Positions 1 through 20,726 are shown, counted from the stretch's first letter. The stretch: 32,000 nt of DNA from Methylorubrum extorquens (GCA_900234795.1 LT962688.1:3240001-3272000), one strand, 5' to 3'. A program made the numbers and translations. The notes: generated by a model from the letters alone, not told the origin.

Positions 1-1
1 C

Positions 2-1408
2 GCCAAGCAGGCCGAACTGATCGGGCGGGGCGAGCGCCGGACGCTGGCCCGCTCGCGCTCCGTCCTCGACCTGCTCGCCGGGGTGCTCGAGCAATCGCGC
101 TTTTCCGCCGCCTGCACCGCCGCGGTGACGGACCTTGCCATCGCCTTTTCCTGCCAGCGCGCGGCAATCGGCTTCGTGCGGCGCGGCAGCACCCGGATCG
201 CGGCGATCTCGCACTCGGCGCAGTTCGGCCGCGAGATGAACCTCGTGCGCCGCCTCGGCGCCTGCATGAACGAGGCGATCGACCAGCGCAGCCTGATCCT
301 GTTCCCGCCGCCCGAGAACGAGGCCACCGTCACGACGGCGCATGCCGACCTCGCCCGCCTGCAATATGGCGGCCGAGTGCTGACCGTGCCGATGCTCGTC
401 GATGACCGCTTCGTCGGCGCCATCACCCTGGAGCGGCCCGCCGACCAGCCGTTCAGCCTCGAGATCGTCGAGCAGGTGAGCGCCTGCGCCGCCGCCATCG
501 GCCCGGTGCTGGAAGACAAGCGGCAGAACGACCGATGGCTGGTGCTGAAGGCCACCGACGCCGTGATGAACGGCGCGCGGCTGGTCTTTGGCCCGAACCA
601 TACCGGGCTCAAGCTCGGCCTCGCCGCGACGCTGGCCGTGGTCCTGGCGCTCTCGGTGATCAAGATCGATTACCGCGTGACTGCGGACGCCCGCGTCGAA
701 GGCCTCGTGCGCCGTTCCGTCGTCGCCTCCTACGACGGCTACCTGAAGACCGCCGGGCACCGCGCCGGCGACACGGTGCGCAAGGGCGATCTCCTCGCCG
801 CCCTGGAAGACCGCGATCTCGCCCTGGAGCGCCTGCGCTGGGTCACCGAGCGCCAGCAGCGCACCTACGAGTACGACAAGGCGCTCGCCACCCGGCAGCC
901 CGCCACGATCAACGTGGTGAAGAGCCAGATCGATCAGGCCGACGCGCAGATCCGCCTGCTCGACGAGCAGATCGCGCGCTCGAAATTCACCGCGCCCTTC
1001 GACGGCTTGATCGTCTCCGGCGACCTTTCGCAATCCATCGGCGGCGCCATCAGCCGCGGACAGGTGCTGTTCGAGATCGCTCCGCTCGACAGCTACCGCG
1101 TCGTCCTCAGCGTGGACGAGCGCCTGATCGCCGACCTGCGCGAGGGCCAGACCGGGCACGTGCTCGCGACCTCCCTGCCCGACCAGCCGCAAGTGCTGAC
1201 GATCCAGACCATCACCCCCGTGGCCGAGGCCAAGAACGGCCGCAACCTGTTCCGGGTCGAGGGCCGGATCGAGGACGGCGCCACCCGGCTGCGGCCGGGC
1301 ATGGAAGGCATCGCCAAGGTCGATGTCGACCGGCGGCTGCTCGCCTGGGTCTGGGCCCGGCCGATCGTCGATTGGGTGCACCTCGCCCTCTGGCACTGGT
1401 GGCCGTGA
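2..1408 (+). CDS. GAF domain / HlyD-family membrane fusion (periplasmic adaptor) protein, probably 5'-partial
   Basis: The frame is open from base 2 with no stop before the GTG at 83, so the gene likely starts upstream of the window. The N-terminal part looks like a GAF domain (VPMLVDDRFVGAITLERP...). A hydrophobic helix follows (LGLAATLAVVLALSVI). The rest is HlyD-like: a lipoyl-like hairpin (GDTVRKGDLLAALED), a coiled coil, then FTAPFDGLIV and a beta-barrel region. An 11-nt gap containing gagg precedes the next gene. Confidence 0.75.
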   Translation, partial: AKQAELIGRGERRTLARSRSVLDLLAGVLEQSRFSAACTAAVTDLAIAFSCQRAAIGFVRRGSTRIAAISHSAQFGREMNLVRRLGACMNEAIDQRSLILFPPPENEATVTTAHADLARLQYGGRVLTVPMLVDDRFVGAITLERPADQPFSLEIVEQVSACAAAIGPVLEDKRQNDRWLVLKATDAVMNGARLVFGPNHTGLKLGLAATLAVVLALSVIKIDYRVTADARVEGLVRRSVVASYDGYLKTAGHRAGDTVRKGDLLAALEDRDLALERLRWVTERQQRTYEYDKALATRQPATINVVKSQIDQADAQIRLLDEQIARSKFTAPFDGLIVSGDLSQSIGGAISRGQVLFEIAPLDSYRVVLSVDERLIADLREGQTGHVLATSLPDQPQVLTIQTITPVAEAKNGRNLFRVEGRIEDGATRLRPGMEGIAKVDVDRRLLAWVWARPIVDWVHLALWHWWP

Positions 1409-1419
1409 GGGGTTGAGGC

Positions 1420-3567
1420 ATGTCCCAGTCCCTGTTCAGCCAATCGTGGTACCGCGTCGCGGCCCTGCGCCCGCGCCTGCGCCGCCATGCCGAGATCCAC
1501 CGGCAGAGCTTTCGCGGCGAGGTCTGGTACGTCCTTCAGGATCACCAGACCGGGCGCTTCCACCGCCTCTCGCCCGCCGCCAACCTCATCCTGTGCATGA
1601 TGGACGGGCGCCGCACCCTGCAGGAGGTGTGGGAGGCGGCCGCGCGCCGCAACGAGGATGACCCGCCGACCCAGGACGACACGATCCGTCTGATCTCGCA
1701 GCTCCACGGCTCGGACCTGCTCCAGGGCGACCTGCCGCCCGATCTCGCCGAACTCGCCGAGCGCTCGGAATCGACCGCGCGCCGCACCCTGATCGCCCGG
1801 GTGAAGAACCCGCTGGCCCTGCGCTTCCCGCTGTTCGACCCCGATCCGTTGCTCGACCGGGTCGCGCCGTATTTCCGGCCGCTCTTCTCGGTCTGGGGGC
1901 TCGCGGTCTGGCTCGCGGTGGTGATTGCCGGCCTCGTCGTGGCCGGGTTGCACGCGGGCGAGCTGACCGGCGACGTCGCCGGTCAGATGCTCTCGGCGCA
2001 GAACGTCGCGCTGATGATGTGCCTCTACCCCGTCATCAAGGCCCTACACGAGGCCGGGCACGCCTGCGCCGCAAAAGCCTGGGGCGGCGAGGTGCACGAG
2101 GTCGGCGTGATGCTGCTCGTGCTGTTCCCGGCGCCCTACGTCGATGCCTCGACCTCCGCCGCCTTCCCCAGCAAGTGGCAGCGGATGATGGTGGCCGCCG
2201 CCGGCATCTTCGTCGAGCTGTCCCTGGCGGGCCTTGCCGCCATCATCTGGGCCACGGCCGAGCCCGGCCTCGTGCGGGCGGCAGCCTTCAACGTGATGTT
2301 GATCGGCAGCGTTTCGACGCTGCTGTTCAACGGCAACCCGCTGCTGCGCTTCGACGGCTACTACATCTTCGCCGACCTGATCGAGATCCCGAATCTCGGC
2401 TCGCGGGCCAATCGCTACGTCTTCTACCTGATCGAGCGCTACGCCCTGAAGATCGAGGGCGCGAAGAGTCCGGTGACGGCGGATGGCGAGCGGCCCTGGC
2501 TGTTCGTCTACGCGGTGGCCGCCTTCGTCTACCGCACCACCGTCTCGATCGCGATCGCGAGCTTCATCGCCACGCAGTACTTCGTGTTCGGCGTGCTGCT
2601 GGCCGGGCTCGCGCTGTTCGGCACCGTGGTCTCGCCCCTGGTGAAGGGGCTCAAGTTCATCCTCACCGATCCGAAGCTGAACCGGCGCCGGAGCCGGGCT
2701 GTCACCCTCACGAGCGCCGCCACCGGTGCGGTTCTGGCCCTGCTGTTCGTGGTACCCCTGCCCTACACGACGATGGCGCAGGGCGTCGTCTGGGCGCCGG
2801 ACGACACGCAGATCCGCACCAAGACCGACGGCATCCTGACCACGCTGCTGGTGGAGCCCGGCCGCGACGCGCAGGCCGGCGAGGCCCTGGCGACGCTCGA
2901 AGACCCGAGCCTCGACAGCCGCGTCGCGGTGCTGGAGGCGCAGCTCGCCGAACTGCGCCTGCGCTACGACGCCGCCCGGCTCGGCGACCGGGTGCAGGCG
3001 CAGATTCTGCAGGAGCAGATCGCCAGCACGCAGGAGATCCTGCGGGTCTACCGTGAGCGGCAGGCCGGCCTCATCGTGCGGGCATCCCAGGCCGGCCGGC
3101 TGATCGTGCCGGGGGCCGTCGATCTGCCGGGGCGGTATCTGCGCCGGGGCGAGCGCATCGGCTACGTGCTCACCACAGACGACCCCGTAGTGCGGGTCGT
3201 GGTGCCGCAGACGGATGTGGACCTGATCCGCAGCCGGACGCAGGGCGTCGCCGCGCGGCTGGCCGAGAAGCCGGAGGAAGTCCGCGCCGGCTCGATCCTG
3301 CGCGAGGTGCCAGGGGCGCAGCAGGAGATCCCGAGCCTCGCCCTCGCGACGCAGGGCGGCGGCACCATCGCCGTGGACGCCAGCAACCCGCAGAAGCCGG
3401 TGGCGCTTCAGAGCATCTTCGTCTTCGACGTCCAGCTCGCGGGCGGCCTCCCTTTCAACGTGCTCGGCGAGCGGGTCTATATCCGGTTCGATCACGGGGC
3501 GGAGCCGATCGCGTGGCGCGCGCTGCGCAGCCTGCGGCAGGTGTTCCTGAGCCAGTTCCGTGTCTGA
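1420..3567 (+). CDS. Three-part fusion: PqqD-like N-terminal domain, M50 (site-2 protease family) zinc metalloprotease membrane core, HlyD-like periplasmic C-terminal domain
   Basis: The HExxH motif HEAGH lies at nt 2047-2061 in a hydrophobic context (LHEAGHACAAKAWGGEVHEVGVMLLVLFPAPYVDAS). The downstream NGNPLLRFDGYY fits the M50 third-ligand motif. The N-terminal 50-100 aa (RFHRLSPAANLILCMMDGRRTLQEVW...LISQLHGSDLL) follow a PqqD-like pattern. The C-terminal 250 aa have an HlyD-like lipoyl and coiled-coil pattern (GEALATLEDPSLDSRVAVLEAQLAELRL). Confidence 0.8.
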   Translation: MSQSLFSQSWYRVAALRPRLRRHAEIHRQSFRGEVWYVLQDHQTGRFHRLSPAANLILCMMDGRRTLQEVWEAAARRNEDDPPTQDDTIRLISQLHGSDLLQGDLPPDLAELAERSESTARRTLIARVKNPLALRFPLFDPDPLLDRVAPYFRPLFSVWGLAVWLAVVIAGLVVAGLHAGELTGDVAGQMLSAQNVALMMCLYPVIKALHEAGHACAAKAWGGEVHEVGVMLLVLFPAPYVDASTSAAFPSKWQRMMVAAAGIFVELSLAGLAAIIWATAEPGLVRAAAFNVMLIGSVSTLLFNGNPLLRFDGYYIFADLIEIPNLGSRANRYVFYLIERYALKIEGAKSPVTADGERPWLFVYAVAAFVYRTTVSIAIASFIATQYFVFGVLLAGLALFGTVVSPLVKGLKFILTDPKLNRRRSRAVTLTSAATGAVLALLFVVPLPYTTMAQGVVWAPDDTQIRTKTDGILTTLLVEPGRDAQAGEALATLEDPSLDSRVAVLEAQLAELRLRYDAARLGDRVQAQILQEQIASTQEILRVYRERQAGLIVRASQAGRLIVPGAVDLPGRYLRRGERIGYVLTTDDPVVRVVVPQTDVDLIRSRTQGVAARLAEKPEEVRAGSILREVPGAQQEIPSLALATQGGGTIAVDASNPQKPVALQSIFVFDVQLAGGLPFNVLGERVYIRFDHGAEPIAWRALRSLRQVFLSQFRV

Positions 3568-5596
3568 CCCCCTCGCCCTCTCCGCCGGCTCGGCGCCCGG
3601 AGCCGCCTTCCGCGTGCCGACCGTGCGCGCCTATTCCGAGCGCAAGCCGCTGAAGGCGAGCCGGCTGGATCAGGCCGCTGCGCGGGTGATCGGCCGCGTG
3701 CGCGTCGGGCTCGCCGGCTGGGCGGCCCGCCGCTACGCGCGGATCGCCCGCGCCGCCCTGGCGCAGGCCGAGGACATCGCCGAGCTGTCCGAAGAGGCGC
3801 TGCAATTCCGCATTCGGGCGATCACGGGCGCTCTGCGCGCCCGGAAAACGTTTCGCGATGCCGACATCGCGGAGGCGTTCGCGCTGATCCGCGAGATGTC
3901 GGGGCGGGTGAAGGGGCAGCGCCATTACGGCGTGCAGATGATGGGTGCTGCCGCCATCCTCGACGGGCGCGTCGCCCAGATGGCCACCGGCGAGGGCAAG
4001 ACCCTCACGGCGACGCTGGCCGCCGGGGCCGCGGCGCTGGCCGGCCTTCCCGTCCACGTCGTCACGGTCAACGATTACCTCGCCGAGCGCGACGCCGAGG
4101 AGATGCGTCCGCTCTACGCCGCGCTGGGGCTCACCGTCGGCGTCATCAAGGAGAAGCAGGAGCAGCCGGAGCGGGCACAGGCCTATGGCTGCCACATCAC
4201 CTACTGTACCAACAAGGATCTCGCCTTCGACTACCTGCGCGACCGGATCGCGTTGGGCCAGCGCGCCAGCGACGTGCGCCTCAAGCTCGAGAGCTTGCAT
4301 GCGAGCGCGAGCCGGCTCGCCCAGCTCCGCCTGCGCGGCCTGCACTTCGCCATCGTCGACGAGGCCGACAGCGTGCTGATCGACGAGGCGCGCACGCCGC
4401 TCATCATCTCGGCCCCGGCCGGCTCGCAGTTCGGCACGGAGGTGCTCGCCCGCGCCATGGAAATCGCGGCGGAGTTGAAGAGCCCCGAGGATTACGGGAT
4501 CGAGGCGGCCGAGCACCGGATCATCCTCACCGAGGCCGGCCGCGAGCGGATCACGCGTCTCGCCACGAGCGACGGGCGCGGCGAGGCCTCGGCTTGGCGT
4601 GGGCGTGTCACCCGCGAGGGGCTGGTGCGCCAGGCGCTCTCGGCTCTGCACCTGTTCCACCGCGACGAGCACTACATCCTGCGCGACGGCAAGGTGGTGA
4701 TCGTCGATGCCAATACCGGCCGGGTGATGCCGGACCGGAGCTGGAGCGACGGCCTGCACCAGATGGTCGAGCACAAGGAGGGCTGCGACCTCTCCGGCGC
4801 CCGCTCGACGCTGGCCCGCATGACCTACCAGCGCTTCTTCCGCCGCTATCCCCGGCTCGCCGGCATGACCGGCACGACCCGCGGCGTCGCCGCCGAATTC
4901 TGGACGGTCTACCGCCTACCGGTGGTGCGCATCCCGACGCACCGGCCGGTGCAGCGGCGCCACCTCCCCGACGAGGTCATGCCCGACGAGGCGGCGAAAT
5001 GGCGGCGGGTGACGGCACGCATCGCCGAGCTCCATGCGAAGGGCTGCCCGGTTCTCGTCGGCACCCGCTCGGTGGCGGCCTCCGCGCGGGCGAGCACGCA
5101 TCTCACCGCAGCCGGGCTGCCGCACACGGTGCTCAGCGCCGCTCAGGACGGGCAGGAAGCGGCCATCGTGGCGCAGGCCGGGCAGTGCGGCCGCATCACG
5201 GTGGCGACGAACATGGCCGGGCGCGGCACCGACATCAAGCTCGGCCCCGGCGTGGCTGAACGCGGCGGCCTGCATGTCATCATGGTCGAGCGCCAGGACG
5301 CGCAGCGCATCGACGACCAGCTCGCCGGCCGCAGCGGACGCCAGGGCGAGCCCGGCTGTTTCCAGGCGATTCTTTCGCTCGACGATCCGCTGCTGGATAG
5401 CAGCCTCGTTAGCCGCGGGCTCGCCCGCCGCATCATGGCGCTGCTCGGCCCCGAGCGCGGCCGGGTCTTCGGCGCGCGCCTGCTGCGCCACGCGCAGTTG
5501 CGCACCGAGCGGCTGCACGGGCGCATGCGCGCCGACCTGCTGCATTCCGACCAGATGCAGGACCGTATTCTGGCTTTTGCCGGCCATGCCGAGTGA
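3560..5596 (+). CDS. SecA-like ATPase paralog (NBD1, reduced PPXD, NBD2) truncated within the first helix of the helical scaffold domain
   Basis: SecA signatures are present: Walker A MATGEGKTL (nt 3980-), VTVNDYLAERDAEEM, ITYCTNKDLAFDYLRDR, Walker B AIVDEADSVLIDEARTPLIIS, TNMAGRGTDIKLG and LAGRSGRQGEPG. At 678 aa it is well short of the roughly 900 aa expected for housekeeping SecA. The GTG start overlaps the stop of the upstream gene by 8 nt, which suggests translational coupling. Confidence 0.85.
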   Translation: MSDPLALSAGSAPGAAFRVPTVRAYSERKPLKASRLDQAAARVIGRVRVGLAGWAARRYARIARAALAQAEDIAELSEEALQFRIRAITGALRARKTFRDADIAEAFALIREMSGRVKGQRHYGVQMMGAAAILDGRVAQMATGEGKTLTATLAAGAAALAGLPVHVVTVNDYLAERDAEEMRPLYAALGLTVGVIKEKQEQPERAQAYGCHITYCTNKDLAFDYLRDRIALGQRASDVRLKLESLHASASRLAQLRLRGLHFAIVDEADSVLIDEARTPLIISAPAGSQFGTEVLARAMEIAAELKSPEDYGIEAAEHRIILTEAGRERITRLATSDGRGEASAWRGRVTREGLVRQALSALHLFHRDEHYILRDGKVVIVDANTGRVMPDRSWSDGLHQMVEHKEGCDLSGARSTLARMTYQRFFRRYPRLAGMTGTTRGVAAEFWTVYRLPVVRIPTHRPVQRRHLPDEVMPDEAAKWRRVTARIAELHAKGCPVLVGTRSVAASARASTHLTAAGLPHTVLSAAQDGQEAAIVAQAGQCGRITVATNMAGRGTDIKLGPGVAERGGLHVIMVERQDAQRIDDQLAGRSGRQGEPGCFQAILSLDDPLLDSSLVSRGLARRIMALLGPERGRVFGARLLRHAQLRTERLHGRMRADLLHSDQMQDRILAFAGHAE

Positions 5597-5609
5597 GGAC
5601 TGTTTTGCG

Positions 5610-6491
5610 ATGACCCTTCTGGCTGGAACGCGGCAAGCCCGGATCTGCGCGGCGCTCGCTGCCCTCTTCCTCTCCACCTGCGCGGCGCGCGCCCAGGACA
5701 CCCGCGTCGATTGCGTGGTGGAGCCGGCGCAGAAACTGAAGATCGGTTCGGCGACGCTCGGCATCCTCAAGAGCGTGCCGGTCAATCGCGGCGCGGCGGT
5801 CAAGGCCGGCGACATCATCGCCCGGCTCGATTCGAGCGTGGAAGAGGCCAACGTCGCCCTGTCGCGGGCGCAGGCAGAATCGACCGCCGGCATCGAGGCG
5901 CAGCAGACCCGCGTCGAACTTTACAAGCGCCGCCTCGAACGCCAGAACCAGCTCTCAAAGGGCATCGTCACCCAGGAGAAGCTCGATCAGGTCGAGGCCG
6001 ATTACGAGATCGGGAGGCGCGACCTCCAGACCGAGATCCTCAAGCACAAGCTCAACGGCATCGAACTCCAGCGCGCCGAGGCGCAGCTCGAATTGCGGAT
6101 GATCCGCAGCCCGATCCGCGGCATCGTCACCGAGCGGTTGATGTCGGCCGGCGAGTTCGTACGCCAGGACAGCGCGATCTTCACCCTGGTCCAGCTCGAT
6201 CCGCTCTACGTCGAGGCCTACCTGCCGGTCTCCCGCTGGAAAGAGATCGCCCTCGGGATGCCGGCCACCGTCGTGCTCGACCAGCCGATCGGCGGCGCCT
6301 ACGAGGCCAAGGTCAGCGTGGTCGATCAGGTGTTCGACGCGGCGAGCGGCACCTTCGGCGTGCGCCTCGAATTACCGAACCCGGACTTCAAGCTGCCCGG
6401 CGGCCAGCGCTGCAAGGTCGCCTTCCCGCTTCCCCCCGCCGGGCCGCTCGCGACCGCCCTGCCCCCCGACGCCAAGTTCGACGCTAAGTAG
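5610..6491 (+). CDS. HlyD / efflux RND-type periplasmic adaptor subunit with N-terminal signal or lipoprotein-like peptide
   Basis: The ATG at 5610 gives MTLLAGTRQARICAALAALFLSTCAARAQD, a signal peptide. This is followed by a lipoyl-like motif (AVKAGDIIARLDS), a coiled coil, IRSPIRGIVTE and a beta-barrel region. An alternative ATG at 5586 overlaps the secA-like stop. The upstream part of the tracked ORF (5034-5609) lies inside the secA-like gene and is rejected. Confidence 0.8.
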   Translation: MTLLAGTRQARICAALAALFLSTCAARAQDTRVDCVVEPAQKLKIGSATLGILKSVPVNRGAAVKAGDIIARLDSSVEEANVALSRAQAESTAGIEAQQTRVELYKRRLERQNQLSKGIVTQEKLDQVEADYEIGRRDLQTEILKHKLNGIELQRAEAQLELRMIRSPIRGIVTERLMSAGEFVRQDSAIFTLVQLDPLYVEAYLPVSRWKEIALGMPATVVLDQPIGGAYEAKVSVVDQVFDAASGTFGVRLELPNPDFKLPGGQRCKVAFPLPPAGPLATALPPDAKFDAK

Positions 6492-6560
6492 GCGGCGAAT
6501 CGGAGACCGGTTGCCCGGCGCGATGGACCTTTGCCCGTCATCGACGTATTGCGCTGCACG

Positions 6561-7220
6561 ATGGAGCGGACGGCGACACGGATGCTGACGGTGGGGCTCG
6601 CGGCGCTCGGCGCCGCCGTGCCACCCGCCGACGCGGGCAGCGCGCGGGCGCAAGCGGCGGGAGCCGCCGCCGAGACAAGCCGGGAGGCGCAGGATGGGTC
6701 CGAGGCGCGCGCCTTGATCGAAACGCTGAGCGCCCGCCTTCTCGCCGCGCCGAGCGCCACCGCCGTTCTCGAAGCGTGGTGCGCCGAGCGCGGGCTCAGC
6801 CCCGATCCGCGGATCGTCGCCGTGCGCGTCCCCGGCCCGGACAAGCTCCCCGGCGCAGCCCGGCGCGAGCGGCTGGCCGTGGGCCCGGACGAGCCGGTGC
6901 GCTACCGCCGGGTGCGGCTCACCTGCGGCACCCACGTCCTGTCCGAGGCCGACAACTGGTACGTTCCGAGCCGCCTGACGCCCGCGATGAACGCGGCGCT
7001 CGACGGCACGCAGGCCCCCTTCGGCCACGTCGTGCGCCCGCTCGGTCCGAGCCGGCGCAACCGGTCGCTGACGATGCTGTGGCGGCCCGAATCCGGCGGC
7101 CTGCCGGGGCCCGGCGAACCGCTGTTCTCAGTCGAGGCGGTGCTGACGGCCGGCGGCGTGCCGTTCTGCGAAGTCGCCGAGACTTATACCGGCGCCGTGC
7201 TCATTCAGGGCGAGCGCTGA
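6561..7220 (+). CDS. Secreted hypothetical protein, last gene of the operon
   Basis: The ATG at 6561 (or 6582) gives a signal-peptide-like N-terminus (MLTVGLAALGAAVPPADAGSARAQA). Third codon positions are GC-rich, consistent with real coding. I recognise no family with confidence. The segment LEAWCAERGL...YRRVRLTCGTHVLSEADNWYVP vaguely recalls chorismate-lyase/UTRA-fold proteins, which is weak inference. Confidence 0.55.
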   Translation: MERTATRMLTVGLAALGAAVPPADAGSARAQAAGAAAETSREAQDGSEARALIETLSARLLAAPSATAVLEAWCAERGLSPDPRIVAVRVPGPDKLPGAARRERLAVGPDEPVRYRRVRLTCGTHVLSEADNWYVPSRLTPAMNAALDGTQAPFGHVVRPLGPSRRNRSLTMLWRPESGGLPGPGEPLFSVEAVLTAGGVPFCEVAETYTGAVLIQGER

Positions 7221-7255
7221 CGCGACTCCCGGCCAGACCCCAGTTTGTCCCATCC

Positions 7256-7334
7256 GTCATCGCGAGCGAAGAGATCCAGGACCGCGACGGCTTCGGAGAG
7301 GTCGGCGCGCTGGACGGCTTCATCTCGCCGTGAC
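7256..7334. repeat. REP-like imperfect intergenic palindrome between convergent genes
   Basis: The left arm is gtcatcgcgagcgaagagatccag (7256-7279). The right arm is ctggacggcttcatctcgccgtgac (7310-7334). The reverse complement of the right arm shares the blocks gtca/gcgag/gaag/tccag with the left arm. From memory it resembles a Rhizobiales repeat family with a GTCATTGCGAGCGAAGCGAAGCAATCCAG core. Confidence 0.45.
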
Positions 7335-7352
7335 GAGATCGAGCCTCTTAGA

Positions 7353-8243
7353 TCAAAAATCCTGATCGGCCCGGCGGCCCTCGCGGGCAAGGCGCAGCAG
7401 GTTCTGGCCGTAGCTGGTCTTGGCGAACAGCTCGCCGCGCGCTTGCAACTGCTCGCGGCCGATGAAGCCTTGCAGGTAGGCAATCTCCTCCAGGCAGGCG
7501 ACCTGAAGCCCCTGCCGGCGCTGCAGCACCCGCACGAACTCGCCGGCCTCGAGCAGGCTGTCATGCGTGCCTGTGTCGAGCCACGCGTAGCCGCGGCTCA
7601 TCCGCTCGACATGGAGCTGGCCGCGTTCGAGATAGGCTTGGTTGACGGATGTGATCTCGAGTTCGCCCCGGTCCGAGGGCTTCACCTCCGCGGCGATGTC
7701 GAGAACCTGATTGTCGTAGAAGTACAGGCCCGTCACCGCCCAGGGGCTTTCGGGGGTCTTGGGCTTCTCCACCAGCCGCAAGGGCCGGCCGGACTCGTCG
7801 AGGGTGACGACGCCGTAGGCCTCCGGATGATCGACGTGGTAGGCAAACACCGTCGCCCCGCTCTTGCGGGTGCGCGCCTTGGCGAGCAGGTCGCTCATGC
7901 CGTTGCCGAAGAAAAGGTTGTCGCCGAGCACCAGTGCCACGTCGTCGCTGCCGACGAAGTCGCGGCCGATGATGAAGGCCTGGGCCAGCCCTTCGGGTCG
8001 CGGCTGCACCGCATAGGTGAAGGTGACGCCGAACTGCTCACCGGTGCCGAGCAGGCGCTGGTAGTTGCCGAGATGCTCCGGCGAGGAGATGACGAGGATC
8101 TCGCGGATGCCGGCGAGCATCAGCACCGAGATCGGATAGTAGATCATCGGCTTGTCGTAGACCGGCAGCAGCTGCTTGTTGATCGCCAGCGTGGCCGGAT
8201 GGAGCCTGGTGCCGGAGCCGCCGGCGAGCACGATGCCCTTCAT
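7353..8243 (-). CDS. rfbA: Glucose-1-phosphate thymidylyltransferase
   Basis: [55 protein letters not shown] is the canonical RmlA N-terminus. The ATG at 8243 follows agga and lies just after the rfbD stop. The GTG start in the ORF track (8252) is less likely. Confidence 0.95.
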
Positions 8244-8259
8244 ACGAAACACGTCCTGA

Positions 8260-9150
8260 TCAGTGGGAGCGAACCGGCCCGACCAGCCGGTCGAGGATGT
8301 CGTCGAGCGCCGGCTCCCAGGAGCGCGGCGCGAGGCCGTAGGCGTCGGTCAGGCTCTGGGTGGAGAGGCGCGAGTTCACAGGGCGCCGGGCCGGCGTCGG
8401 GTAGGCCGAACTCGGGATGCCCTCGATCGGCACCGAGCGCCCGCCGCGCCGGACCGACCCGGAGACGATCGCCCGGGCGAACTCGCACCACGTCGTCGCG
8501 CCGTCGTTGACGCAGTGGAAGGTGCCGGTGGGCGCAGCCTCGTCGCCGGCCAGCCGTAGGGCGATGGTGGCGAGCGCGCGCGCGAGGTCGGCGGCCGAGG
8601 TCGGGCAGCCGTGCTGGTCCTCGACAACGGTAAGCCGATCCCGCTCGTCCGCGAGCCGCAGCATCGTCTTGACGAAGTTGCCCCGGTGCGGGCTCACCAC
8701 CCAGGCAGTGCGCACGATGGCGTGGCGCGGATTGCCGGAGCGGACCGCCATCTCGCCGGCCGCCTTGCTGGCGCCGTAGACGCTCTGCGGGTTCACCGGC
8801 GCATCGGGGGCGTAGAAGCCTTCGCCCGACCCATCGAACACGTAGTCGGTCGAGACATGGACGAGCGGGATGGCCCGCCGCTTCGTCTCGGCCGCGAGGA
8901 TGGCCGGGGCCAGCGCGTTGAGGCGCCACGCGGCCGCGACCTCGCTCTCGGCCTTATCCACCGCAGTGTAGGCGGCCGTGTTGATCACCGCCGCATAGGT
9001 GCGCGCATCGAGCGCGGCGGCAATGGCGATCTCGTCGGTGATGTCGAGGTTCTGACGGTCGGGCGCGTGGACCCGCACGCCCTCGGGCCAGGGAAAGGCC
9101 TGAAGCTCCGTGCCGACCTGACCGGCGCCGCCGAGGATCAGGATGTCCAT
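8260..9150 (-). CDS. rfbD: dTDP-4-dehydrorhamnose reductase
   Basis: [16 protein letters not shown] is a Rossmann-type N-terminus, and [12 protein letters not shown] and YGASKAAGE are RmlD signatures. The ATG at 9150 lies 2 nt after the rfbB stop. Confidence 0.93.
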
Positions 9151-9152
9151 GT

Positions 9153-10211
9153 TCAGGCGCTCTTGGGCGCGAGGCCGAGGCGCTCGCCGGAATAGCGGCC
9201 CTCGCGGATCGGGCGCCACCACGCCTCGTTGTCGAGGTACCAGCGCACGGTTTCCGTCAGCGCCTCCTCGAACACCTTGGTCGGCCGCCAGCCGACCTCG
9301 GCTTCCGCCTTCGACGGGTCGATGGCGTAGCGGCGGTCATGGCCGGGCCGGTCGGCGACGAAGCTGATCAGGCGCTCGTGCGGGCCGTTCTCGGGCTTGA
9401 GTTGGTCGAAGGCGGCACAAAGCGCCTTCACCACGGCGAGGTTGTTCCGCACCGAGCGCCCGCCCAGCAGGTAGGTCTCGCCGAGCCGGCCGCGCTCCAG
9501 CACCGCGACGAGGCCGCGGGCATGGTCCTCGACATGGATCCAGTCGCGCTCGTTCAGGCCGTCGCCGTAGACTGGGAGCGGCTTGCCCTCCAGCGCCGCC
9601 AGGATCATCAGCGGGATCAGCTTCTCGGGGAAGTGGCGCGGGCCGTAATTGTTCGAGCAGTTCGTCACCAGAACCGGCAGGCCGTAGGTCTCGTGCCAGG
9701 CGCGGGCGAGATGGTCGGAGGCCGCTTTTGACGCCGAGTAGGGCGAGCGCGGATCGTAACGGCTCTCCTCAGTGAAGAAGGCGTCGGGCGGCAGCGAGCC
9801 GTAGACCTCGTCGGTCGAGACGTGGAGGAAGCGGAACGTCGCCTTGGCCTCGCGGTCGAGGCTTTCCCAATGGGTGCGGGCGCCGTCGAGCATGACCTGG
9901 GTGCCGATGACGTTGGTGCGCACGAAGGCACCCGGATCGGTGATCGAGCGATCGACATGGCTCTCGGCGGCCAGATGCATCACCGCCTCGGGCCTGAACT
10001 CGGCGTAGAGGGCGTGGACGCGGGCCGGATCGCAGATGTCGGCCTGTTCCAGGCGGTGGCGCGGGTCGTCCGCCAGCGGCTGCAGCGAGATCGGATTGGC
10101 GGCATAGGTCATGGCATCGAGGGTCAGCACCTCGTGGCCGAGATCCTGCACCAGATGCAGCACGAGCGCGGAGCCGATGAAGCCGCAGCCGCCCGTTACC
10201 AGAATGCGCAT
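9153..10211 (-). CDS. rfbB: dTDP-glucose 4,6-dehydratase
   Basis: MRILVTGGCGFIGSALV, HLAAESHVDRSI, FLHVSTDEVYG and YSASKAASDHL are the RmlB SDR signatures. The ATG is at 10211. Confidence 0.95.
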   Translation of the reverse strand: MRILVTGGCGFIGSALVLHLVQDLGHEVLTLDAMTYAANPISLQPLADDPRHRLEQADICDPARVHALYAEFRPEAVMHLAAESHVDRSITDPGAFVRTNVIGTQVMLDGARTHWESLDREAKATFRFLHVSTDEVYGSLPPDAFFTEESRYDPRSPYSASKAASDHLARAWHETYGLPVLVTNCSNNYGPRHFPEKLIPLMILAALEGKPLPVYGDGLNERDWIHVEDHARGLVAVLERGRLGETYLLGGRSVRNNLAVVKALCAAFDQLKPENGPHERLISFVADRPGHDRRYAIDPSKAEAEVGWRPTKVFEEALTETVRWYLDNEAWWRPIREGRYSGERLGLAPKSA

Positions 10212-10344
10212 CGATCTCAACTCCGTCCAATTCCTGCCAGCGGGGTCGGCATCCGCGGGATGGGCAAGGGCCACGCTCGGCCGCGCCTACGCCAACCTGA
10301 GGTCGGGCTCAATCCGCCCGACCGAACGATCTCGATACCTTGAC

Positions 10345-10896
10345 TCAGAACACCCGCCCGAGATCGGCCAGAAGCGGCGCCGCCTTGTCCTTGCCCGAGA
10401 GGATCGCATCCGCTTCGGCCACCGGCCATTCAATGCCGATCGCCGGATCGTTCCAGCGCAGGTTCCTGTCGTCGGCTGGGCTGTAATAGGCGTCCACCTT
10501 GTAGGCGACCATGGTGTCCGGCTCCAGGGTGCAGAAGCCATGGGCAAAGCCGGCGGGCACGAAGAGCTGTTCGCCGCCGGTCGCATCGAGCCGCACCGCG
10601 ACGTGGCGGCCGTAGGTCGGAGAGTCGGAGCGCAGGTCAACGGCGACATCGAGGATCGCGCCGGCGAGCACCCGGATCAGCTTGGCCTGGGCGTTGGGTG
10701 CGACTTGGAAGTGCAGGCCCCGGATCGTGCCGGCGGGCGCGGAGAAGGACTGGTTGTCCTGCACGAAGGCGTTGGCGATCCCGTGCTCGGACAGGATATC
10801 GGCCCGGTAGATCTCGGAGAACCAGCCGCGGTCGTCGCCGTGGCGCTTCGGGATCACCCGTTTGACCGCCGGAATCTCAGTATCGATGACCTGCAT
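10345..10896 (-). CDS. rfbC: dTDP-4-dehydrorhamnose 3,5-epimerase
   Basis: KRHGDDRGWFSEIY, GTIRGLHFQ and LFVPAGFAHGF are RmlC cupin motifs. This is the first gene of the minus-strand rfbCBDA operon. Confidence 0.95.
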   Translation of the reverse strand: MQVIDTEIPAVKRVIPKRHGDDRGWFSEIYRADILSEHGIANAFVQDNQSFSAPAGTIRGLHFQVAPNAQAKLIRVLAGAILDVAVDLRSDSPTYGRHVAVRLDATGGEQLFVPAGFAHGFCTLEPDTMVAYKVDAYYSPADDRNLRWNDPAIGIEWPVAEADAILSGKDKAAPLLADLGRVF

Positions 10897-18539: not shown

Positions 18540-20504
18540 TCAGACGAACTGAACGCCGACCCCGTCGTCGGCCCGCCGTATGACGCGGCAGCGTCGGGAC
18601 GGCTCGCCGTCGATGTGAAGCGTGATGAGGTTCGGAAGGTCCGCAGCCTCGAGTGCCAGCTTAGCGCCGCCCTCCGAGAGGTTGAGAATGGTGCAGGGGC
18701 GGCTCTGCGGCGTCCCCGCCGTTCGCCCGCGCTCCGGCACGAACGCGACAAGGCCGGCGCGCGAGGAGCGAAGGCGCTCCTCGCCCCGCCGCTCCTCCAG
18801 CCCGACATTCCAGGCGTCGAGACGGCTCGCAAACTCCGCCACGCTCGCGGCGGTGGCCTGCATGTCGGTGCTGACCTGACCGGTGGTCGCGCGCTGCCGC
18901 GTGCTGTCCGCGGTGGTCTGCGCGATGAAGCCCTGCACGGTATCGACCACCGCCGCGGTCGAGACCAGCGCCGCGCCGACATCCCGCGAGACCGCCTGCA
19001 TGGCACCGATCTCGCCGGTGATGCGCGCGGTGGCCGAGCGCGCCTGCTCGGCGAGGCTCTTCACTTCGGTGGCGACGACGGCGAAGCCGCGGCCGGCCGC
19101 ACCGGCGCGGGCGGCCTCGATCGTGGCGTTGAGAGCGAGCAGGTTGATCTGCTCGGCGATGCCCGTAATGACCTCGACCACGCCGGTCATCGCGGCGGCC
19201 GCGTCGTCGAGCTTCGCCGAGAGGACGCTGGCGGCGCTCATGCGGGTCTGAATGTCGCCGACCGCATCGTGCGAGCGGTTCATCTGCTCAGCGATTGATT
19301 CCGAGATCCGGTGCATCTCCTCGGACGCGCCGGCCACCGTCCGTACCCGGGCCAGCGTCTGCTCGGCCATGGCGAGGGCGCTGGCGCGCACCGCCATGCT
19401 CTGGCTGATGTCGAAGGCGTATTTTACGATCTTGAACGGGCGCCCGGCCGCGTCGAGAACCGGGTTGCAGGAGGCCTGAATCCAGACCTCGCGACCATCC
19501 TTGGCCACCCGCTGGTAGACGGCGGAGGTGAACTGCCCCGCCCGCAGCGTCGCCCAGAACTCGGCATAGGCCGGGCTCGCGGCGATTTCGGGCGTCACGA
19601 ACATCCGGTGATGCCGGCCCTGCACTTCGGAAAGGGTGTAGCCGAGCGCGTTCAGGAAGTTGTCGTTGGCGTCGAGCACCGTGCCGTCCATGCCGAACTC
19701 GATCACCGCCTGCGAGCGGCGGGCGGCCTCGACCTTTCCCGCCATGTCGGCGGCGACGCGCTTGGCCGCCGTGATGTCGGACGCGTATTTGACGACCTTG
19801 AACGGGCGCCCGGACGGATCGAGGATCGGGTTGTAGGTCGCCTGGATCCAGACCTCGCGCCCGTCCTTGCCGACGCGCAGGAACTCGCCGGCCCGGTACT
19901 CGCCGCGGGCGAGCGCCTCCCAGAAGGCGCGGTACTCCGCGGATGCCGCCTCTTCCGGCCGCACGAACTGGCTGTGGTGGCGGCCCTCCACCTCGTGCGG
20001 CGCGTAGCCGAGGGCGTCGAGGAAGTTGGCGTTGGCGCTGCGCACCGTCCCGTCGAGGTCGAACTGGATCACCGCCTGCGACCGGCTGATCGCGGCGATC
20101 TGGCCCGCCGTCTCGGCGGAGGCGAGCCGCTCGGTCGTCACGTCGAGGGCGAATTTGACGATCTTCCGAACGCGGCCGGCGGCGTCGAGGATTGGATTGT
20201 AACTCGCCCGGATCCAGACCTTGCGTCCGTCCTTGGTGAGACGCCCATAGGCCGCCGTCTGAAACGTGCCGCGGCGCAGGCCCTGCCAGAACGCCTCGTA
20301 CTCCGCGCTCTCCGCCTCCTGCGGGTCCACGAACAGACGATGATGCCGCCCGCGCACCTCACCGAGGGTGTAGCCCATCAGTGAGAGGAAATTGTCGTTG
20401 GCGTCGAGCACCGTCCCATCGACGGCGAAGGTGATGACGGCTTGGGAGCGGTTGAGCGCGTCGAAGATGGACGCGGCATCGGAGCGACGAAGGACGGAGA
20501 GCAT
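18540..20504 (-). CDS. Soluble methyl-accepting chemotaxis protein with three tandem PAS domains and a C-terminal PilZ domain
   Basis: No transmembrane segment is visible. There are three roughly 122-aa PAS repeats, each with RSQAVI...GTV..AN.NFL..LGY...EV.GRHH..FV...Y..FW..L..G......R..KDGR.VWI.A.YNPI.D..GR. The MCP signalling hairpin [35 protein letters not shown] is present. The C-terminal PilZ motifs are RRGEER (RxxxR) and NLSEGG (NxSxxG). The ATG at 20504 has ggag upstream, and a GTG at 20534 is an alternative start. Confidence 0.88.
19401..20468 (-). repeat. Intragenic tandem triplication (period 366 nt) encoding the three PAS domains of the chemoreceptor
   Basis: The RSQAV motif recurs at residues 29, 151 and 273 of the tracked ORF, a spacing of exactly 122 aa. 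The three units are clearly alignable at protein level. Confidence 0.8.
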
Positions 20505-20726
20505 CGGTGATTTCGGCTCCACTTGCCGTCCCACGATGCCCGATGCCGCTTAAGAATCTCCTCTGAGGCATCAAAGGATGCATTTCTGTCAGTGCGGACA
20601 GGGCAGGCTTCCGCAAACGGTCAAGCTTCAGCCATCTTCTCCGGCGCATGCAGTCACCAACTCGACCGAAGGTTGTGCCCCCCTCCGCCCGACTGTCCGT
20701 CCATCGGACATCAGCGATCAGTTCGA

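Follow-up and report, generated by a model that had tools for sequence, protein, structure and literature searches.

A truncated SecA paralogue of Methylorubrum extorquens, encoded with HlyD-type adaptors and a PqqD-M50 protein, as candidate motor of a type-I-like exporter

We analysed a stretch of 32,000 nucleotides from Methylorubrum extorquens (GCA_900234795.1 LT962688.1:3240001-3272000; hereafter the window), which encodes a shortened SecA paralogue. This SecA-like protein retains both nucleotide-binding domains (NBD1 and NBD2), the clamp formed by the preprotein cross-linking domain (PPXD) and most of the scaffold helix; nothing is left of the elements that couple SecA to SecYEG (wing domain, two-helix finger and C-terminal tail). 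The HlyD-type adaptors and the PqqD-M50 protein encoded in the same operon point to an exporter of the type-I-like kind that is independent of Sec, and not to a protein that assists SecYEG in the manner of SecA2. In our view the SecA-like protein is probably, with a fair share of doubt, the cytoplasmic motor of such an envelope-spanning exporter, which would operate without an ATP-binding cassette (ABC) transporter and would carry giant proteins as cargo. The truncated SecA family and its operon are already published at the level of comparative genomics. Our data add the N-terminal PqqD domain and the invariant HExxH motif of the M50 protein, DUF3467 as a constant component, and an island that combines SapC with giant LEPR-XLL proteins. 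No report of this parts list (PqqD, DUF3467, SapC) or of the synteny with LEPR-XLL genes was found in the literature searched, and both appear to be unreported. The gene and its parts are as follows:

3560..5596, + strand: truncated SecA-like ATPase ("secondary SecA_DEAD domain protein"), 678 amino acids, the main finding
3560..3727, + strand: family-specific N-terminal extension, residues 1-56 (alignments to solved SecA structures begin at residue 57)
3980..4003, + strand: Walker A motif MATGEGKT, residues 141-148 (seven of eight residues invariant in family alignment A3)
4355..4405, + strand: Walker B / DEAD-like motif VDEADSVLIDEARTPLI, residues 266-282 (D267, E268, A269, D270 and D275 to L281 invariant)
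4439..4771, + strand: PPXD, residues 294-404 (Pfam SecA_PP_bind, E 6.4e-29; present in the AlphaFold2 model)
4946..5413, + strand: NBD2, residues ~463-618 (Pfam P-loop_SecA; contains TNMAGRGTDI at 550-559 and GRSGRQGEPG at 590-599)
5414..5578, + strand: single long C-terminal helix, residues 619-673 (DSSP on the AlphaFold2 model; alignments to T. maritima and E. coli SecA)

The open reading frame (ORF) has a GTG start and runs unbroken through 678 codons to its stop. Besides the PPXD, Pfam recognises SecA_DEAD (E 1.6e-98) and P-loop_SecA (E 5e-47) in the product, and the scaffold/wing model SecA_SW has no match to the 678-residue protein. The scores for the NCBIfam SecA models stay below their cutoffs (equivalog NF009538, 590 bits versus 814; TIGR00963, 567 versus 800), and the same applies to all four SecA2 models (TIGR03714, 478/930; TIGR04221, 426/725; TIGR04397, 515/1085; NF012136, 385/1100). 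Family alignment A3 comprises 42 relatives with 56-90% identity. Here, TNMAGRGTDI and GRSGRQG (590-596) are invariant or nearly so, and the Walker B region from D267 to L281 includes the stretch DEARTPLI. All ATPase motifs that had been described as intact from the sequence were thus found, with core residues that hardly vary within the family.

The original prediction had the protein stop inside the first helix of the helical scaffold domain. The end indeed lies in this helix, but about four fifths of it are kept and the end is near its distal side. In HMMER alignments to solved SecA structures the furthest aligned point is residue 669, which equals residue 650 of the T. maritima SecA chain, and the alignment to the B. 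subtilis structure pairs residues 57-622 with 17-556. We also used the E. coli SecA sequence (901 amino acids) as tblastn probe. Since its residues Ec34-651 align to 3773-5557 of the window, the last residue of the SecA-like protein corresponds to about Ec663, which falls within the long scaffold helix of E. coli SecA that we take to span about Ec621-672. With Ec640-901 of this probe, no match was obtained in the whole 32-kb window, whichever frame is considered (best E 5.9). Together with the missing SecA_SW match this bears out the predicted loss of wing domain, two-helix finger and C-terminal tail. The AlphaFold2 model (mean predicted local distance difference test score, pLDDT, 83; predicted template modelling score, pTM, 0.82) likewise consists of NBD1, PPXD and NBD2 followed by the single helix 619-673, with no further scaffold. 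With its 55 residues this helix makes up most of the first scaffold-domain helix of SecA, and the protein stops five residues beyond it; Q646, E650, M656 and R657 are invariant in A3. The best Foldseek matches are SecY-engaged, clamp-closed SecA structures (6itc_A, TM-score 0.80; 5eul_A, 0.79; 3dl8_A, 0.77). A crude hydropathy scan yielded one weak, marginal segment, which we do not take as a membrane helix. In established SecA structural biology, the two-helix finger, the wing and the distal scaffold are the elements that contact SecY and couple the motor to it.

At the other end, the expected surplus of about 45 N-terminal residues measures ~40-46 residues relative to solved SecAs, as residue 57 is paired with position 17 of B. 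subtilis SecA and, in the E. coli SecA chain, with position 11. The extension is partly conserved and carries the motif LPxxRLYxER at about residues 19-28 (P20, Y25 and E27 at least 90% conserved in the 42 sequences). In the AlphaFold2 model residues 1-19 have a pLDDT below 50 and are predicted to be disordered, and an extra helix covers residues 35-50. The ratio of non-synonymous to synonymous substitution rates (dN/dS) is 0.09-0.6 for the extension, higher than in the rest of the gene, so that this part is less constrained. Translational coupling had been proposed on both sides of the gene. Upstream, the GTG at 3560 overlaps the M50 gene, with its TGA at 3565-3567, by 8 nt; downstream, the HlyD gene most likely starts with the ATG at 5610, 13 nt past the SecA-like stop, which is close but not overlapping. 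A promoter and terminator scan of 1..8600 returned no sites.

A product that resembles the N-terminal three quarters of SecA could in principle be a decayed duplicate of secA or the result of a sequencing frameshift, and would then be functionless. This explanation is already refuted and its probability practically nil. The ORF is clean, and a continuation in another frame had to be rejected: the downstream ORF is an HlyD adaptor, Ec640-901 is unmatched, and no displaced coding sequence for scaffold, wing or tail is present in the window. The end point is moreover the same throughout a very large family. Among database sequences, the 120 nearest relatives have 595-685 amino acids, nearly all of them 645-685, and come from Methylobacterium/Methylorubrum, Mesorhizobium, Bosea, Devosia, Aminobacter, Xanthobacteraceae, Stellaceae and Rhodoblastus, with Methylobacterium sp. 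Leaf90 (99% identity) as the top match. When 1.8 billion cluster representatives (one per 50%-identity cluster) were searched exhaustively, ~145 of the 150 top-ranking matches proved to have 640-690 amino acids, and most align to within a few residues of the C-terminus of our protein. Similarly, the genes in related genome loci end at the position of residue 675-678, and the terminal residues L671, A672, G675 and E678 are at least 90% conserved in A3. Using the Nei-Gojobori method with Methylobacterium/Methylorubrum orthologues (ranges from pairs with whole-gene dS below ~0.7), we obtained a dN/dS of 0.09-0.23 for the whole gene, which indicates purifying selection, and of 0.05-0.30 for the C-terminal helix; the closest low-divergence pair gave 0.37 for the helix, a value calculated from only 60 codons. 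Conserved length and end point, purifying selection and conserved terminal residues support the view, already taken in the original prediction, that the gene encodes a functional, specialised motor and not a decayed duplicate.

Members of the truncated family are also encoded by complete plasmids from Methylosinus, Pontibrevibacter, Aminobacter and Mesorhizobium. A 571-kb plasmid of Pseudosulfitobacter sp. DSM 107133 (NZ_CP085155.1) holds two separate matches, which suggests two copies of the system. Two longer proteins from the searches were set aside: P0175 (993 amino acids, metagenomic), an apparent Rosetta-stone fusion of a SecA-like N-terminal part with HlyD, is not trusted because its NBD2 is partly deleted and it may be an artefact of assembly or gene calling, and P0146 (1240 amino acids) is a full-length SecA with SecA_SW outside the truncated clade. 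RefSeq lists some family members (P0002, P0017, P0019, P0051, P0069 and the plasmid matches H1-H4) as "prepilin peptidase" or "DEAD/DEAH box helicase"; these names are wrong and were apparently spread by annotation transfer.

The window gene belongs to a known family, since Kamneva, Poudel and Ward described both this family and the same M. extorquens operon (Kamneva et al., 2015, PLoS One; PMC4452313). They named its members "secondary SecA_DEAD domain proteins" that have lost the wing-scaffold domain and are encoded with GAF-HlyD, Peptidase_M50 and HlyD/Biotin_lipoyl proteins, sometimes also with an outer membrane efflux protein (OEP). The window agrees with this description in both respects, namely a SecA_DEAD protein without SecA_SW and a locus with GAF-HlyD, Peptidase_M50 and HlyD, and we see no difference in kind, as genus and domain content are the same. 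The authors explicitly analysed the operon META1p2402-2399 of M. extorquens AM1, and their supplementary table lists the locus in M. extorquens AM1, M. extorquens PA1 and M. populi. The genomes studied also contain a canonical SecA, hence "secondary", which, like the occurrence of the family on complete plasmids, speaks indirectly against the window gene being the sole secA of its genome; the secondary proteins are phylogenetically separate from it and their clade was placed sister to actinobacterial SecA2. One Chlorobi genome was found to encode such a protein as well. It was proposed that the SecA_DEAD protein is the ATPase that replaces the ABC transporter in a type-I-like system, with the M50 protein as membrane pore, and the biological role was termed "completely unknown". 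DUF3467, the PqqD domain, SapC, the block of modification enzymes and a giant or LEPR-XLL cargo are not mentioned in that paper.

Next to the SecA-like gene the window contains the following parts of the operon, in which HlyD-type domains occur in three proteins:

1..1408, + strand: 3' part of the gene for a GAF-HlyD adaptor with a transmembrane (TM) helix, GAF-TM-HlyD (Pfam GAF, HlyD_3/HlyD_D23; the window begins inside the gene)
1420..3567, + strand: fusion of a PqqD domain (like a recognition element, RRE, of ribosomally synthesised and post-translationally modified peptides, RiPPs), an M50/site-2-protease-like membrane domain and HlyD, 715 amino acids (Pfam PqqD, Peptidase_M50, HlyD_3)
5610..6491, + strand: third HlyD-type periplasmic adaptor, 293 amino acids (NCBIfam RND_mfp, 137 bits, cutoff 94.9)
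6531..7220, + strand: small secreted protein, 229 amino acids, signal-like N-terminus

A near-identical locus, L001, covers what lies upstream of the window. It contains the whole GAF-TM-HlyD gene (5948-7849), which encodes a protein of ~633 amino acids with one TM helix at residues 367-385 according to a crude hydropathy scan; the GAF-bearing N-terminal ~366 residues would accordingly be cytoplasmic and the HlyD part periplasmic. This gene is preceded in L001 by a 98-residue DUF3467 gene, and beyond it, in divergent orientation, follow genes for an O-methyltransferase, a P-loop protein, a 795-residue Trp-halogenase-like protein, an unknown 291-residue protein and a radical SAM enzyme. The third HlyD adaptor has a signal peptide and a possible lipobox (LSTC). 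For the product of 6531..7220 (219 amino acids in L001) there was no Pfam or NCBIfam match; among related loci its gene is kept only in the Methylorubrum/Methylobacterium group, after the last adaptor, and it is doubtful that the protein belongs to the secretion system.

To follow this arrangement across genomes, an alignment of six PqqD-M50-HlyD proteins was searched against one genome per GTDB species. This gave 80 loci, mostly from Alphaproteobacteria and a few from Gammaproteobacteria, Myxococcales, Desulfomicrobium and metagenome-assembled genomes of Acidobacteria. The order seen in the window (GAF-HlyD, M50, SecA-like, HlyD), which matches the published AM1 operon, holds in nearly all sufficiently long loci; in these the SecA-like gene follows the M50 gene, typically with a start that overlaps the M50 stop. 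GAF-HlyD precedes the M50 gene in nearly all 80 loci; DUF3467 also stands on this upstream side, and in most loci an HlyD adaptor comes after the SecA-like gene. Four distant relatives likewise have this five-gene core. Two of three divergent gammaproteobacterial loci (M50 protein 41-42% identical) keep a SecA_DEAD ATPase in the same slot; the third, L083, has no SecA-like match. Candidates for the outer-membrane exit vary: a TolC gene adjoins the operon in Methylosinus, Methylocystis and Methylocapsa, and in Mesorhizobium, Aminobacter, Devosia and Xanthobacteraceae a gene for a ~430-residue beta-barrel protein with a faint Autotransporter/OMP_b-brl signal is located just upstream of DUF3467 (L002, 2099..3403; L025-L040, ~6200-6500). 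This beta-barrel protein is a candidate for the exit instead of TolC. It is missing upstream of DUF3467 in the Methylobacterium loci, and the window and L001 have neither TolC nor the beta-barrel gene next to the operon. An apparent DUF3467-GAF-HlyD fusion in Devosia aurantiaca (L003) is a frameshift and was discarded; several genes of this locus are broken (3667..10800, M50 gene split into three calls, last HlyD gene broken), which indicates a decaying locus or a poor assembly.

These neighbours bear on the idea that the protein is an accessory motor like SecA2, which works with the housekeeping SecYEG, and that the HlyD and M50 proteins act downstream in the periplasm. Its descent from SecA is clear (39-45% identity to canonical SecAs), the clade is sister to actinobacterial SecA2 as mentioned above, and the AlphaFold2 model resembles the SecY-bound conformation. 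However, the two-helix finger, the wing and the distal scaffold are absent, the scores are well below the cutoffs of the four NCBIfam SecA2 models, no secY2 or asp genes are found near the SecA-like gene, and its invariant partners are HlyD and M50 proteins. We therefore consider a SecA2-like role very unlikely.

The main rival to an exporter of giant proteins concerns the M50 protein and the enzymes encoded nearby. In the 715-residue fusion the PqqD domain occupies residues 37-101 (27.7 bits, cutoff 23.4) and Peptidase_M50 residues 206-292, and the NCBIfam model daptide_HExxH matches with E 1.5e-48, below its cutoff. H210, E211 and H214 of the HExxH motif as well as NPLLRFDGY with D312 are invariant in the six PqqD-M50-HlyD proteins (50-55% identity), and a crude hydropathy scan places ~6-7 hydrophobic segments between residues 156 and 445. 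The system could thus export a RiPP or another small molecule, with PqqD as RRE, M50 as leader peptidase and the SecA-like ATPase feeding a peptide to protease and pump; the product would be made by the O-methyltransferase, the P-loop kinase-like protein, the Trp-halogenase-like flavoenzyme, the 291-residue protein and the radical SAM enzyme. A PqqD domain above its cutoff combined with an invariant M50 HExxH motif is the pattern expected of such an RRE and peptidase, and the M50 domain resembles the metalloproteases of daptide and YydH/LiaK RiPP maturation. The block from methyltransferase to radical SAM co-occurs with the operon in ~45 of the 80 loci and abuts it in the clade of the window. 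In the rearranged loci L041-L043 the M50 gene is followed by the HlyD adaptor and then by the methyltransferase, P-loop, halogenase-like, unknown and radical SAM genes, with the SecA-like gene last in L041 and L043 (the contig of L042 ends before this position); such an arrangement links the block and the secretion genes within what looks like a single operon. In addition, neighbourhoods of SapC, itself a predicted enzyme, and Trp-halogenase have been predicted to make a halogenated metabolite (Iyer et al., 2010).

Nevertheless, we regard a RiPP or small-molecule exporter as unlikely. We noticed no small precursor gene, although no systematic search for small ORFs was made. DUF3467 is the sole small conserved gene and, unlike a RiPP precursor, is conserved along its full length without a hypervariable core; because of this end-to-end conservation we consider it unlikely to be a precursor. 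The enzyme block is missing from the plasmid and Rhodobacterales versions, which keep the five-gene core beside a giant gene, a motor of 678 residues that clamps polypeptides would be odd for a small product, and the enzymes could equally modify a giant protein. For DUF3467 we also tried the assignment as a SecB-like chaperone, which found no support in hhalign against E. coli SecB (probability 0.2), a profile search, AlphaFold2 or Foldseek.

The giant genes are the feature that suggests a cargo for the proposed exporter. On two complete plasmids, pMSC49a of Methylosinus sp. C49 and one of Pontibrevibacter, a giant gene (8,847 and 10,603 amino acids, respectively) is located directly upstream of DUF3467, and the N-termini of both products match NCBIfam NF012209 "LEPR-8K" (LEPR-XLL domain); in pMSC49a a TolC gene comes after the last adaptor. 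Twenty-one of the 80 loci contain a same-strand ORF of at least 1,200 amino acids that extends beyond the edge of the locus and has its stop directly ahead of DUF3467 or the upstream beta-barrel gene. Scans of these fragments gave RTX (HemolysinCabind) repeats in four, and in one also LamG and PKD domains. A SapC gene and/or a LEPR-XLL N-terminus lies within 10 kb in 29 of the 80 loci, and any cargo signal (giant ORF, SapC or LEPR, including one further locus with the LEPR motif) in 45. Searching with the LEPR-XLL N-terminus of M. carpenticola retrieved LEPR-XLL entries from Methylorubrum extorquens and M. rhodesianum. The clade of the window thus shows the same pattern. In L090 and L091, a contig of M. 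rhodesianum and one of another assembly, the genes are ordered Trp-halogenase-like, unknown 291-residue protein, radical SAM, AraC, SapC, LEPR-XLL, an extension of the island whose beginning is visible where L001 ends on the left, and the SapC gene (L090, 6607..7407; L091, 3589..4389) is directly upstream of the LEPR-XLL gene wherever both are in the sequence. The giants share an N-terminal region of ~75 residues consisting of MAFPFxSxG, a basic stretch and (L/F)(D/E)PLEPRxLL(N/S)xD. Judged by this sequence context, the giant RTX protein beside the SapC gene in the same island is likely the cargo.

Comparable findings exist elsewhere. Two giants of Chlorobium chlorochromatii (36,806 and 20,647 amino acids) have LEPRxLL N-termini, are encoded beside sapC and tolC, and are co-expressed with a horizontally acquired "secA", Cag_1676 (bioRxiv 10.64898/2026.03.19.712371); the pairing of SapC and LEPR-XLL is published for Cag_662/663 of this species. 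Giant proteins of Omnitrophota and Actinobacteria contain SecA_DEAD and PPXD without scaffold and wing, and the authors suggested that these embedded SecA domains export the giant protein itself (bioRxiv 10.1101/2023.11.21.568195). Motor and clamp are thus alike in both cases, but here they form a separate protein of 678 residues in an HlyD/M50 operon.

Based on these observations, we put forward as a tentative proposal, which may well be wrong in its entirety and falls somewhat short of being probable, that the truncated SecA, the PqqD-M50-HlyD protein, two HlyD adaptors and DUF3467 form a machine dedicated to LEPR-XLL giants of 8,000 to more than 30,000 residues. It would handle them N-terminus first by a MAFPF...LEPRxLL leader that is read by PqqD and removed by M50, without an ABC transporter, with exit through TolC or a beta-barrel protein and with cargo decorated by SapC and the enzymes. 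Already in the exporter favoured above, the PqqD-M50-HlyD protein is the candidate for substrate receptor, leader peptidase and membrane conduit at once. In its most economical form, the proposed mechanism would begin with the PqqD domain, which would take hold of a giant protein, nascent or unfolded, by its N-terminal LEPR-XLL region; the SecA-like ATPase would then clamp the chain and push it, N-terminus first, into a conduit of M50 and adaptor TM segments, where the M50 site may cut off the leader. The HlyD adaptors, including the third one as a possible lipoprotein, would bridge to TolC or the beta-barrel protein, and the RTX repeats would fold outside the cell upon calcium binding. GAF-HlyD may gate the exporter, the small DUF3467 protein may be a cytoplasmic adaptor, and SapC and the enzymes of the adjoining block (halogenase, methyltransferase, radical SAM) are possible modifiers of the cargo. 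Our data show the domain content, the truncation point, the conservation, the purifying selection, the synteny of the operon and its co-location with LEPR-XLL giant genes; ATPase activity, complex formation, conduit, identity of the cargo, recognition and cleavage of the leader and the direction of transport are all inferred here.

Alternatively, the SecA-like protein could be an ATPase for processing or quality control that unfolds the giant or another substrate for M50, while an ABC-dependent type I system encoded elsewhere is responsible for export. The M50 active site is invariant, RTX repeats like those of the giants are typical of ABC-dependent type I substrates, and the SecA_DEAD ATPase alone was remarked to be unable to form a pore (PMC4452313). 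Without transport, however, the three HlyD adaptors and the TolC or beta-barrel genes in some genomes are hard to explain, and the two plasmid loci (~25 kb each) have no gene annotated as an ABC transporter, nor does the operon contain one. Such a role is therefore quite unlikely in our estimate.

Several points weigh against the motor of a giant-protein exporter as the preferred explanation. In the classical case, RTX giants leave the cell with the C-terminus first through type I systems of the ABC type, and the genomes considered here may encode such systems elsewhere. The cargo is assigned by gene neighbourhood alone. The 32-kb window itself has no giant gene and no LEPR motif; for the source genome the cargo link is drawn from sister genomes. 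Thirty-five of the 80 loci lack all three signals (giant, SapC, LEPR) within 10 kb; most of these, not all, are short contigs or have flanks that end one or two genes short, for example at radical SAM. For DUF3467, AlphaFold2 reached a pLDDT of only 57, Foldseek gave no match and a profile search of PDB sequences returned only noise. Cag_1676 could be of another type than the truncated one. Finally, only the GAF gene is clearly expressed in M. extorquens AM1 in exponential phase (PMC4452313).

The comparison with better-known systems helps to define what would be special about the proposed exporter. The housekeeping SecAs of E. coli, B. subtilis and T. maritima have NBD1, PPXD, NBD2 and most of the scaffold helix in common with the window protein (~41% identity over 560-620 residues; Foldseek TM-score up to 0.80), which differs by its end at ~Ec663, without the wing, the two-helix finger (intramolecular regulator of ATPase hydrolysis, IRA1) and the Zn-binding tail, and by its ~40-46 additional N-terminal residues. 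SecA2 of Actinobacteria and Firmicutes is similarly a second, non-essential paralogue with a reduced C-terminal region, but it retains scaffold domain and two-helix finger and works with SecYEG or SecY2, whereas the truncated protein has neither and is tied to HlyD/M50 genes. Among the fold matches is also SecA-N68 (PDB 5k9t), an engineered truncation of E. coli SecA that equally combines DEAD motor and PPXD without the C-domain; N68 is a laboratory construct, whereas the natural protein retains the scaffold helix. N68 is deregulated and has elevated ATPase activity because the inhibitory IRA1 is missing, and the natural truncated protein presumably relies on partner proteins for regulation.

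With type I secretion (HlyB-HlyD-TolC) and the peptidase-containing ABC exporters, the system shares HlyD-type adaptors, adjoining TolC in some genomes, a likely RTX-rich cargo and leader recognition plus peptidase apparently built into the inner-membrane component. In contrast to type I systems, a soluble ATPase derived from SecA would replace the ABC transporter, there are three distinct adaptors, and the candidate signal (LEPR-XLL) is N-terminal and not C-terminal. The peptidase also differs, being an M50 metalloprotease with a PqqD domain and not the C39 cysteine peptidase of the peptidase-containing exporters.

If the dedicated machine exists, the protein exporters that span the envelope would gain a new class, and the question of how giant proteins leave the cell would have an answer. 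Should the synteny reflect a cargo relation, it provides a concrete and genetically tractable hypothesis for the export of proteins with 8,000-36,000 residues, as M. extorquens AM1 has the operon, and it is relevant as well to the "symbiosis" giants of Chlorochromatium. The family is large, with at least ~145 representatives at the level of 50%-identity clusters that have the same length and end point, and ranges over the Alphaproteobacteria and, in divergent form, other phyla. It offers a natural experiment on what a SecA motor is capable of without the elements for SecY coupling. Its database names, including "preprotein translocase subunit SecA", are misleading and could be corrected.

Immediately after the operon, the window contains a dTDP-rhamnose biosynthesis cluster on the - strand (7353..10896), which is probably unrelated to the secretion operon because other relatives do not have it. 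It comprises rmlA (NTP_transferase, 7353..8252, as in L001), rmlD (8260..9222), rmlB (9153..10274) and rmlC (10345..10896). A 421-residue Arg/Ala-rich ORF at 7245..8510 on the + strand is spurious, antisense to the real gene rmlA and typical of DNA with 70% GC. At 18540..20534 (- strand) a protein of 664 amino acids is encoded that combines three PAS domains, a signalling domain of methyl-accepting chemotaxis proteins (MCP) and a C-terminal PilZ domain, and looks like a soluble chemoreceptor with a module that binds cyclic di-GMP.

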